Shown: piece by piece, positions 10,535-13,609 of the stretch
How positions within the stretch are numbered: the first letter of the stretch is position 1
Layout of the letters: every line of letters begins with the position of its first letter
Assembly: GCA_964487115.1 (NCBI GenBank)
Contig: CAZAPD010000106.1
Location: 1 to 15,868, forward strand
Source: an uncultured Thermococci archaeon
Lineage (GTDB): Archaea > Methanobacteriota_B > Thermococci > Thermococcales > Thermococcaceae
Direction: 5' to 3'
DNA: 15,868 nucleotides
Notes under the pieces: generated by a model
What the model was told of the DNA's origin: nothing
The model's input: only the letters and a program-made list of their open reading frames with translations
Database searches by the model: none
Position numbers and translations under genes: made by a program

Positions 10535-10638
10535 TTAAATACTTTTCGGTGTTTTCTCGGCTTTATGTGGCGTTAGTAGAGTGATTAAATCTTCATCCAT
10601 GCTCCTGCAAGTTTGTGTCAAAGCGAAAGGTTTTAAGG
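10535..10638. promoter_or_regulatory. Divergent BRE-TATA promoters for albA (-) and purB (+)
   Basis: The minus strand has CGAAAAG-TATTTAA (10548-10535) and the plus strand has CGAAAGG-TTTTAAGG (10624-10638). Confidence 0.6.
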
Positions 10639-10668
10639 TTTAAGAATTGCCATAGACTTGGTGATTAC

Positions 10669-12024
10669 ATGGCCGTTCATCCGATCGATTACCGCTACGG
10701 GAGCGAGAAGATGAGGCGCATCTGGGACGAGAAGAACAAGCTGCAAAAACTTCTGGACGTTGAGGCGGCTTTAGCAAGAGCCCATGCCAAGGTAGGAAAT
10801 ATACCCGAAGAAAGCGCCCGCATTATCTCCGAAAAGGCCAATACGAAATGCGTGAAACTTGAACGGGTTAAAGAGATAGAAACTGAGATACACCACGACA
10901 TAATGGCCGTCGTCAGGGCTCTGAGTGAGGTCTGCGGCGAGCATGGTAAGTACGTCCACCTCGGGGCGACCTCGAACGACATAATAGACACCGCCAATGC
11001 CCTCCTCATAAAAGAGAGTCTTGAAATAGTGGAAAACGACCTTAATGAGATACGCTCGATTCTCAAAAACCTTGCCCACGAGCATAAATACACCGTTTGC
11101 ATAGGAAGAACCCATGGTCAGCACGCGGTTCCGACAACATACGGCATGAAGTTTGCGATATGGCTCGACGAAATACAGAGGCATCTGGACAGGATAGAAG
11201 AGCTGAGGCAGAGGGTTTTAGTCGGGCAGATGAGCGGTGCCGTTGGGACGATGGCAAGCTTTGGAGAGAAAGGCATTGAAATACAGCGCCTCGTTATGGA
11301 AGAGCTTAGCCTAAAGCCGGCCAGAATAAGCAACCAGATAATCCAGCGTGACGTCTATGCAGAACTTATGATGGTTCTGGCTCTCATTGCCTCGACACTC
11401 GACAAGATAGCCCTCGAAATCAGAAACCTTCAGAGGACGGAGATACTTGAGATCAGCGAGCCCTTTGGGAAAAAGCAGGTTGGTTCTTCAACCATGCCCC
11501 ACAAAAGGAACCCAATAAGGAGTGAGAAGGTAAGCGGACTCGCAAGGGTTCTCTACTCAAATGTTATTCCAGCTTTGCTAAACAATCCCCTCTGGCATGA
11601 GAGAGACCTCACTAACTCCTCCGTTGAACGTGTTATCCTTCCAGAGAGCTTTGTCCTGCTCGACGAGATGTTGAAGAGTATGAAAAAAATCCTTGCGGGC
11701 CTTGAGTTCTTCCCGGGAAACATCGAGCGCAATCTCTATCTTACAAAGAACCTTATCATGGCCGAGCCGCTGATGTTGAAGCTGACGGAAAGGGGCATGG
11801 GGAGGCAGGAAGCGCATGAACTCGTCAGACAGCTCGCCATGAAGGCGTTTGAAGAAAATAGAGATCTAATAGAGATGGCCATGGAAAACAGAGATGTGAG
11901 GAGGTTCTTAACTGAAGACGATTTTGAAAGCCTGAAGCCGGAGAACTATATAGGTATGGCACCTCTGATAGTTGACAACGTAATCGCATGGATAGAGGAG
12001 AGAGAGCGAGAAAAAAGATTTTAA
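10669..12024 (+). CDS. purB: Adenylosuccinate lyase
   Basis: Motifs MAVHPIDYRYGS, HLGATSNDI, GRTHGQHA, the fumarate-lyase signature GSSTMPHKRNP and LWHERDLTNSS are present. The RBS GGTGAT precedes ATG 10669. Confidence 0.97.
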   Translation: MAVHPIDYRYGSEKMRRIWDEKNKLQKLLDVEAALARAHAKVGNIPEESARIISEKANTKCVKLERVKEIETEIHHDIMAVVRALSEVCGEHGKYVHLGATSNDIIDTANALLIKESLEIVENDLNEIRSILKNLAHEHKYTVCIGRTHGQHAVPTTYGMKFAIWLDEIQRHLDRIEELRQRVLVGQMSGAVGTMASFGEKGIEIQRLVMEELSLKPARISNQIIQRDVYAELMMVLALIASTLDKIALEIRNLQRTEILEISEPFGKKQVGSSTMPHKRNPIRSEKVSGLARVLYSNVIPALLNNPLWHERDLTNSSVERVILPESFVLLDEMLKSMKKILAGLEFFPGNIERNLYLTKNLIMAEPLMLKLTERGMGRQEAHELVRQLAMKAFEENRDLIEMAMENRDVRRFLTEDDFESLKPENYIGMAPLIVDNVIAWIEEREREKRF

Positions 12025-12028
12025 GCCC

Positions 12029-12105
12029 TTTTTTTGTTATTTTAGGGCGTATGCTTCTTTTTTGAGATCCTGCTCTGAGGGTGCATGATAACCCTCAAAT
12101 TTTTT
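12029..12105 (+). terminator. Putative purB terminator (oligo-T tracts plus hairpin)
   Basis: A T7 run (12029-12035) lies just after the stop. A 7-bp stem TGAGGGT/ACCCTCA (12076-12097) is followed by a T6 run. Confidence 0.5.
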
Positions 12106-12120
12106 GGTGTGTTTTTACTT

Positions 12121-12270
12121 TTTGATTTAGTTATAATTTTTAGATTTAATTTATAATATTTTTATTTATTGTTTGTCTATTTTTAATTTAATTATAAAAT
12201 CGTTTTAAAATTAATATTTAAATTATTAAATTTTAGTTATTTCTAACTATAATTAAACGTAAAAATTTAA
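12121..12270. other. Left extreme AT-rich block flanking dif
   Basis: Manual count gives 13 G/C in 150 nt (about 91% AT), with no ORF. Confidence 0.85.
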
Positions 12271-12543
12271 TCAGGTATTAGTAGTTCCCGCAACAACTTA
12301 AGAGTATGTTGGGGGAGCATATTCATAGTACTCTGGCGTTTATCATCTCGATGTGAGACTTCCCAGGGTGCATCATGTCAAGGTTCATAGATTCCTAATA
12401 GTTATCATCTAAGCCGGCTTTCATGGTACAAAATTTGATTACAATTAAAGGTAGTACAAATTCTATGATGGAAGTATATCGCTCGGAGTGCACGGAATTC
12501 CACATAGGCATATCGCTCCTTGTATGTACAAGGTTGTTCTTCG

Positions 12544-12575
12544 ATTTTGGATATAATACACCTTATATCCAAAAT
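12544..12575. other. dif: dif site (XerA chromosome-dimer resolution site)
   Basis: ATTTTGGATATAA-TACACC-TTATATCCAAAAT has perfect 13-bp arms and a 6-bp asymmetric spacer. The 28-bp core (12546-12573) has the 11-6-11 tyrosine-recombinase layout and the GATATAA-N6-TTATAT pattern I recall for Thermococcales dif sites. Confidence 0.88.
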
Positions 12576-12810
12576 TGGTGTACATCAACATACATTATTC
12601 AAAGACGAAAAAAGTTGTATCCTTTAGAATTTAACGCTTCTTATAATAGTTTAATACTCTATTAGGAAAGATTACATAGGGACAACAAACCAATACTCAC
12701 AGATATGCTTTTTAAGTAGATTTCTCATCTTAGTAGCTTTGTGATGTTTATGCTCCATCGAATGTATTCATCTTAGCTGTTGTTCCTTTTCTATATGGTA
12801 ATTTCTTCAA

Positions 12811-12970
12811 ATTTTTTACAATTATAAATTTTTAGAATATATTTTTATTTAGAGTAATAATTTAAATTGATTTTTGTACATTTAATAATTTTAGTTTTAT
12901 AAGTATAAATAATTAAATATATAAAAATTTAAATATTTATTTTTAATAAAAGTCAAAATTAATCAAAAAT
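12811..12970. other. Right extreme AT-rich block flanking dif
   Basis: Manual count gives 12 G/C in 160 nt (about 92% AT), with no ORF. Confidence 0.85.
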
Positions 12971-13080
12971 TTTGAGAGATGAAAATGGATAAATTAGGAT
13001 AGCCTAAAACCAAAAACAAGTGGATAAGTGACATATTAATGGATAAGCGATGGAAATTGATTTTTTGGAAAAATAACTTG

Positions 13081-13425
13081 TTACAATACTTCTTCACTGG
13101 AAACCTTTGGAACTTCATTCCCCTGGGCCAAAATTATAAGCTCTCTTCCTTCAACCAGCATTTGGGCAACTTTTCTTCTTGCTGAATTTAATGCTCTCCA
13201 TACAGTCCCTCGTGAAATTCCCATCCTCTTACCAGCTTCTTCTTGGGTTAATCCTTCAAAATCAACGAGTCTTAAAGCCTCAAACTCTTCGTAGGTCATA
13301 AATATTGGAGGTTTAGGCTGTCCCAGTGGCGGTAGGGCAGGATAAAAATGCCTGACCTGCGGTATGAATCCTATCATACGCATCTTTCTTCTCCTTCCTC
13401 TTCCTCTACCCATTCCCCATGGCAT
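13081..13425 (-). CDS. DUF134 (UPF0251) family HTH DNA-binding protein
   Basis: EEFEALRLVDFEGLTQEEAGKRMGISRGTVWRALNSARRKVAQMLVEG matches the family, with a basic GRGRGRRRK N-terminus. The start was trimmed to ATG 13425. Confidence 0.88.
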   Translation of the reverse strand: MPWGMGRGRGRRRKMRMIGFIPQVRHFYPALPPLGQPKPPIFMTYEEFEALRLVDFEGLTQEEAGKRMGISRGTVWRALNSARRKVAQMLVEGRELIILAQGNEVPKVSSEEVL

Positions 13426-13495
13426 TTTAATCCCGTTAAAGGTTGGAAAGAAGGGTTTATAGGAGTTTCCCCATATATTGTTACGGGGAAAATTT

Positions 13496-13609
13496 ATGAA
13501 GAGTATTGAGTTTATATGTCCATTTTGTGGATATCGAGCAAAAAGCATGGAAGAACTTAAAAAGCATATCATGAAAAAACATACTCTTAAGATCTTGGAA
13601 AAATCTTAA
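13496..13609 (+). CDS. 37-aa single C2H2 zinc-finger protein (absent from the ORF track)
   Basis: MKSIEFICPFCGYRAKSMEELKKHIMKKHTLKILEKS* fits F-x-C-x2-C-x9-L-x2-H-x4-H. It has a GGGGA RBS-like sequence at 13485-13489 and a TTTATA box at 13456 preceded by a purine-rich BRE. Confidence 0.8.
   Translation: MKSIEFICPFCGYRAKSMEELKKHIMKKHTLKILEKS

Follow-up and report, generated by a model that had tools for sequence, protein, structure and literature searches.

AT-rich arms bracketing dif in Thermococcaceae and their probable relation to the Smc boundary of Thermococcus kodakarensis

RESULTS

Genes and features of the dif locus

The window (a stretch of 15,868 nucleotides from contig CAZAPD010000106.1 of GenBank assembly GCA_964487115.1) belongs to an uncultured Thermococci archaeon of the family Thermococcaceae, whose genome (G000) comprises 2.06 Mb in 132 contigs with an overall AT content of 56.8%. 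On its plus strand, purB (adenylosuccinate lyase, positions 10615 to 12024; TIGR00928 over the cutoff) ends at position 12024, and on its minus strand a DUF134 gene (13081 to 13572; PF02001) ends at 13081. The two genes are therefore convergent, and both end at the intergenic region, as an earlier reading made from the sequence alone (the sequence-only reading) had stated. This region contains dif (12546 to 12573), the presumptive XerA recombination site, with 11-bp arms around a 6-bp spacer and an inverted repeat that is perfect out to 13 bp. A single mismatch, in the spacer, separates it from the published Thermococcales consensus. The conserved repeat arms on either side (12524 to 12545 and 12574 to 12595), which correspond to the ~23-bp conserved flanks of Thermococcales dif sites (Cortez et al. 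2010, PMC2958812), scored 13.6 and 13.4 bits against a matrix of 158 flanks from other genomes, and the 99.9th percentile for random stretches of the window was 7.0 bits. The 11-6-11 layout, the fit to the consensus, and the conserved flanks are those of a Thermococcales XerA/dif site.

The proteins expected to act at such a site are also encoded. A single xerA gene (NF040815 over the cutoff) lies away from dif on contig C131, smc exceeded its profile cutoff and is adjoined by scpA, scpB is present, and trmBL2 was identified (NF041141 over the cutoff); the full set of Smc, ScpA, ScpB, and TrmBL2 that accompanies a T. kodakarensis-type boundary is thus available in G000. Binding and recombination of dif by XerA have been demonstrated in relatives (PMC2958812, PMC11840125). 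The 28-bp consensus dif, the conserved flanking inverted repeat, and the single distant xerA all resemble the Thermococcales XerA/dif system as described in the available text of PMC2958812 and PMC4640148; that text (the second paper being Cossu et al. 2015) deals with the core and its immediate flanks, whereas the arms considered below are more distant.

Two AT blocks flank dif. Maximal-scoring AT segments were found at 12112 to 12271 (160 bp, 91.2% AT) and at 12799 to 12973 (175 bp, 92.0% AT), and these ranked first and second among the six above-threshold AT segments of the genome (57 and 66 bits; the next scored 31 bits), which bears out the two 91 to 92% AT blocks noted previously. Among 3,000 3-kb windows drawn at random from G000, not one contained, on each side, a 150-bp block with an AT content of 79% or higher. 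The left block lies 274 bp from dif, as had been reported, and the right block 225 bp; the 236 bp given before for the right side holds if the block is taken to start at 12810. The spacers had been called ordinary in composition, which is true of the left one (60% AT) and less so of the right one (70% AT). Homology between the two blocks amounted to low-complexity inverted matches of 70 to 88%, and AA/TT periodicity within them was weak.

An ORF of 80 amino acids (12423 to 12665) was regarded as spurious; it spans dif and had no Pfam match. A sigma-70 promoter scan gave chance-level results with a bacterial model that is unsuited to archaea. Immediately outside the left block, a 7-pair hairpin precedes a T run (12076 to 12105); immediately inside this block, an inverted repeat that is imperfect and G+C rich was noted by eye (12284 to 12319).

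Conservation of AT blocks across Thermococcales

A dif pattern search gave a match in 85 of the 99 genomes of the order. From 106 stretches of about 3 kb, 25 were set aside as non-dif by sequence and 81 were kept, of which 5 more, on short contigs, were dropped; the contig-end dif of G048 lies outside this locus set. Both blocks, defined on each side by an AT content no lower than 79% in a 150-bp window within 1.5 kb of dif (a threshold picked after the data had been seen), were present in 45 of 47 loci of genus g1 (G000 included), 2 of 2 in g2, 1 of 8 in g3, 9 of 11 in g4, 1 of 7 in g5, and 1 of 1 in g6; because the genomes are kin and the counts are not independent, these figures describe spread and not significance. 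With the threshold at 75% AT the g1 count became 46 of 47, and at 82% it became 27 of 47. Among the 25 set-aside stretches, which served as a control, none had both blocks (one of them, from G012, was later shown to contain an off-centre real dif). The comparison of dif flanks in relatives that the sequence-only reading had proposed as a check thus found AT flanks conserved. A second dif-like site in one genome (G025:C1:363131, L022) has broadly AT-rich surroundings without two blocks.

The spacing of the blocks was less constant than their presence. In the 45 two-block g1 loci, block centers lay 223 to 1,421 bp from dif, the left and right distances differing by a median of 114 bp, and the locus in the window had the shortest span and the highest AT content of all 45. 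Because the spacing between block and dif varies among relatives, the near-symmetry of the window, correctly described before, is incidental.

Orthology with the T. kodakarensis boundary

The main chromosomal boundary of T. kodakarensis (boundary 1) is a 1.9-kb convergent intergenic region containing dif, in which two Smc peaks, each on a TrmBL2 peak, flank dif in DNA of >75% AT (Yamaura et al. 2025, PMC11840125). According to the available text of that study, the boundary requires trmBL2 and the intergenic DNA, the latter being both necessary and sufficient; 66 Smc peaks overlap TrmBL2 peaks; and the two TrmBL2 sites of top efficiency have AT contents of 78% and 73.5%. Relative to the Smc summits, those of TrmBL2 are shifted inward by ~100 bp, and the authors explained the strong stalling and the offset by AT content and DNA shape.

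One comparison genome, G026, contains the published 28-bp T. kodakarensis dif and the boundary and probe primers. The gene families on the two sides of its dif are those found beside dif in the window; the purB pair groups together in a BLAST cluster with 48 flanking ORFs as members, and the DUF134 gene clusters likewise with the right flank of G026. The locus in the window is therefore the orthologous one. The AT blocks of G026 are at positions -772 and +733 relative to dif, and 200-bp windows having the AT percentages of the top TrmBL2 sites occur in that genome solely 677 to 860 bp from dif, on the blocks. The window locus also has a high-AT tract on each side of an intergenic dif, as in a T. 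kodakarensis-type boundary, and the two loci agree in flanking gene families, in a long dif-bearing intergenic region, in one AT block per side, and in all trans factors. They differ in intergenic length (1,056 bp in the window versus ~1.9 kb) and in block AT content per 200 bp (85 to 89% versus 79 to 80%). Judged from sequence, the window locus is the orthologue of T. kodakarensis boundary 1 and hence not undescribed, so the proposal that it is the best candidate for an undescribed system does not stand: the equivalent T. kodakarensis locus has been dissected (PMC11840125).

A tandem element at the dif-facing edge of each block

The A-tract tetranucleotides of 130 blocks were compared with shuffled sequences; the median z score was 0.87, with 108 blocks above the shuffle mean and 17 with z >2 (0.95 and 1.53 for the window blocks), so that the enrichment was modest. 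Motif discovery in the same 130 blocks recovered a near-palindromic 24-bp core (EM log-likelihood, 722 versus 82 for shuffles), with TAC-n11-GTA observed 59 times against 5.7 expected and GTA-n16-TAC 45 times against 5.8. Together these form an element, P, with the pattern TAC-n11-GTA-n16-TAC-n11-GTA, located at the dif-facing edge of each block. The blocks are thus not featureless AT DNA, each containing a specific element. When each genus in turn was left out of training, P was recognized in 119 of 131 arms (83/94, 4/4, 4/4, 20/21, 6/6, and 2/2 by genus), and a matrix trained on the arms of one side recognized those of the other (42 of 45 and 44 of 47). It occupies the same block edge in both arms and in all six genera of the family.

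In the window, P was found at 12784 to 12833 on the minus strand (core, 12797 to 12820) and, in a more degenerate form, at 12212 to 12261 on the plus strand (core, 12225 to 12248). With the window left out of its training set, a matrix scored just two G000 sites higher than 14 bits. There was one in each block, the right P being the best match genome-wide (29.4 bits) and the left P the second best (27.9 bits). A profile built from 78 arms (R2) and run over the 99 genomes matched the right P (E = 0.003); the left P was absent from its matches at E ≤ 1. The best 150 of 214 R2 rows represented 119 distinct P sites, many of the near-dif ones being training sites, and 115 of these 119 top sites lay within 6 kb of dif: 105 at ≤1.5 kb and 10 at 1.5 to 6 kb. 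The remaining sites among these best 150 rows were one at 17 kb, one on another contig, and two in genomes without a located dif. The best-scoring strand of P faced inward in 118 of 123 arms. Since the core is nearly symmetric (correlation with its own reverse complement, r = 0.89), the direction of an arm comes largely from the order of AT block, P, and spacer.

P resembles the operators of TrmB-family regulators, for which TACT-N3-AGTA and TACT-N7-8-GAGTA have been given (review PMC4158304). It shares with them TAC/GTA inverted half-sites at constant spacing, and its half TAC-n11-GTA has the longer halobacterial spacing, whereas P itself consists of two such halves in tandem (period, 33 bp) and is embedded in very AT-rich DNA; the likeness is one of resemblance only. 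For TrmBL2 itself, nonspecific DNA binding at high concentration is reported in PMC4877046, and the available text of PMC3031468 reports a search in which no TrmBL2 consensus was found. P scored at just two sites in G026, compared with the 66 TrmBL2-overlapping Smc peaks of T. kodakarensis, and is therefore not a generic TrmBL2 motif; it could bind another protein. In G026, P lies 680 bp left and 656 bp right of dif. The published AT percentages of the two best TrmBL2 sites would allow summits 0 to 50 bp from P there, but the fit is not unique, and solutions extend to ~180 bp from P.

A 46-bp motif between block and dif

A second motif, M46, is present in one copy in G000, between the left block and dif (12410 to 12455, plus strand); none was found on the right arm of the window, whereas the T. 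kodakarensis locus has a right and a left copy. M46 had 75 copies, spread over 55 of the 81 loci. Its 61 inward-facing copies were centered a median of 210 bp (quartiles, 193 to 225 bp) inward of the block center, and its distance to dif varied from 127 to ~1,200 bp while the distance to the block stayed. Including divergent copies at the expected place, M46 was present in 89 of 131 arms and in all six genera; it was found in none of 36 genomes outside the family (f1). Of 79 genome-wide matches at E ≤ 0.006, 78 lay within 1.5 kb of dif (64 were training copies, and 14 of the other 15 were near dif), as did 7 of 14 weaker matches. Viral contigs had no match to M46 (one exact degenerate pattern), and plasmids had short chance matches only. 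M46 also led to real dif sites that the pattern search had missed in G072 (L128), G044 (L129), and G012 (L155, G012:C1 near 778980), all three of which have divergent outer arm bases. M46 is likely a site for a further DNA-binding protein.

TK0795, which was pulled down with T. kodakarensis boundary probes (PMC11840125), was considered as a conserved M46 binder and rejected. It resembles McrB and has an McrC-like gene as its neighbor (L126:7395-10954 in G026), and no orthologue of either was found in G000. One M46-like copy in G069 (L130:2374-2413) sits between convergent genes near two ORFs, one large and ATPase-like and the other coiled-coil, with no AT block or dif nearby; this stretch is possibly an integrated element.

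Arms farther from dif

The dif sites of g3 match published Pyrococcus entries (PMC4640148). The low two-block count of this genus, obtained within 1.5 kb at 79% AT, had suggested that it generally lacks two arms, and G037, G091, and G093 had been regarded as one-sided loci; a wider search with P overturned both assignments. Second arms with blocks of 79 to 89% AT were located ~2.0 to 2.3 kb from dif in G012, G037, G091, and G093, and others lay farther off, at 3.0 kb in G014, 5.2 to 5.3 kb in G007 and G013, and 6.2 to 7.1 kb in G009 and G010. On the side of its near arm, G006 has another one 6.7 kb from dif, and G008 has, beside its near arm, two extra arms of AT block and P facing dif, 19 kb to the left and 17 kb to the right (L153 and L154). 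In far arms with a located dif, the AT peak was outward of P in 11 of 12 and coincident with it in the twelfth. Across the family, the distance between arm and dif thus ranges from ~0.14 to 19 kb, and genes may be enclosed. A fixed symmetric spacing is thereby refuted.

DISCUSSION

The AT blocks probably serve as twin TrmBL2-coated roadblocks at which Smc-ScpAB coming in from left or right would stall, so that a domain boundary around dif would be kept, a reading to which a probability of about 0.8 was assigned. The function of the window blocks is carried over by orthology from T. kodakarensis: Smc-ScpAB would stall at TrmBL2 on the two AT tracts, leaving a domain boundary around dif. P may determine that the roadblock protein, for which TrmBL2 is the likeliest candidate, sits at the inner block edge, and would thereby give the arm its direction. 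The view of the region as an extended cis-acting module is upheld by the conserved arms with P and M46, and the link to SMC suggested in the sequence-only reading agrees with the Smc peaks that flank dif in T. kodakarensis (PMC11840125).

The block architecture is already known from T. kodakarensis; P, M46, and the convergent layout across the family appear to be undescribed detail. No description of P, M46, or a family-wide comparison of arms was found in the literature in the portions available, although logos of ≤15 bp in Fig. 7h of PMC11840125 may overlap P. A fuller account is tentatively offered, and is somewhat less probable than its negation: two convergent directional arms, each with an outer AT tract and an inner tandem TrmB-type operator (P), would bracket dif at ~0.1 to 19 kb; P would set the register of the TrmBL2 filament, explaining the 100-bp offset between Smc and TrmBL2; and M46 would recruit a family-specific factor tying the boundary to dimer resolution or decatenation. 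That the arms aid dimer resolution or decatenation at all is speculation. A sequence grammar of this kind, if real, would involve more than AT richness and be the archaeal equivalent of convergent CTCF sites. Like CTCF/cohesin, MatP/matS, and the exclusion of SMC from ter by XerD, the arrangement has facing arms and would keep SMC off the dimer-resolution region (PMC11840125); it differs in that the proteins are unrelated and that direction here comes from the order of AT block, P, and spacer, not from an asymmetric core. The T. kodakarensis study, in its available text, left open why two TrmBL2 sites outdo dozens of others at stalling Smc and why the TrmBL2 and Smc summits are offset by ~100 bp (PMC11840125). 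Since P, M46, and the dif-facing polarity offer short mutable targets in a tractable organism, both questions are directly testable. In genus g3 the motifs predict gene-containing, Smc-poor zones of 2 to 7 kb or more.

Recombination at cer and psi requires short accessory DNA at a fixed distance and phase from the core. The arms and motifs could, by analogy, be accessory sequences that directly control XerA recombination, with Smc stalling secondary; outside the dif region both P and M46 are nearly absent, they are kept with dif despite changed flanking genes, and a partner binding the dif flanks was suggested by Cortez et al. (PMC2958812). This reading is improbable. The distance between arm and dif spans more than 100-fold (~0.14 to 19 kb), at odds with the fixed geometry of cer/psi; neither P nor M46 showed helical phasing to dif (Rayleigh test, p ~0.12 for P and 0.73 for M46); and the spacing of M46 is constant to the block, not to dif. 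In vitro, the XerA of Pyrococcus abyssi needs no accessory proteins to recombine dif (PMC2958812), and the T. kodakarensis boundary is independent of xerA and dif, its loss having no discernible phenotype as far as the available text of PMC11840125 reports. The earlier idea that the flanks license recombination is therefore unsupported.

A second alternative is that the blocks are terminators or promoters of the neighboring genes and M46 a small-RNA promoter. Both neighboring genes end in this region, T-rich tracts adjoin the blocks, M46 has an A/T-rich box, and two orphan transcription starts have been mapped in the T. kodakarensis intergenic region (PMC4247193). The T-rich tracts, however, lie immediately outside the blocks (AT skew, -0.39 at 125 to 150 bp outward), and the blocks are retained where a neighboring gene points away (e.g., G021, G022, G023, G032, and G035) or is unrelated. 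M46 occurs in either orientation at a similar distance from the block (the 14 outward-facing copies lay a median of 218 bp inward of the block center), and no consensus RNA fold was found for it. An Rfam scan of positions 11900 to 13200 gave three matches, each with E >2.9 and far under gathering scores. In the T. kodakarensis start-site table (PMC4247193, as available), no start lies directly downstream of either M46 copy; downstream of the right copy, the first mapped start comes after ~210 nt, and the left copy is followed by none on the plus strand. This alternative is largely refuted and was given little credence.

That the blocks are decayed foreign AT-rich DNA piling up at dif, which the sequence-only reading had named as an outcome that would count against it, could draw on the genes inserted between dif and arm in several genomes and on the M46-like match in the mobile-element-like stretch of G069, but it is refuted for the blocks by the presence of the patterned element P at the same block edge across genera, and it is the least credible of the three. 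Viral contigs gave no exact match to the pattern, and plasmids no near-full one.

Some variation at the locus concerns dif and its immediate surroundings. Among 48 dif loci next to purB, 21 had the dif spacer in one orientation with respect to that gene and 27 in the opposite one. This mixed orientation and the 14 reversed M46 arms suggest that this region has been inverted repeatedly or that the ends of the spacer have changed. In 13 loci (L067, L038, L042, L043, L045, L047, L048, L052, L053, L054, L058, L059, and L101), one flank beside dif is swapped for another shared sequence. The swapped flank sometimes adjoins conserved ORFs (BLAST clusters 2 and 8) between dif and the arm, and such loci look like cases of an element integrated at dif that pushed one arm outward.
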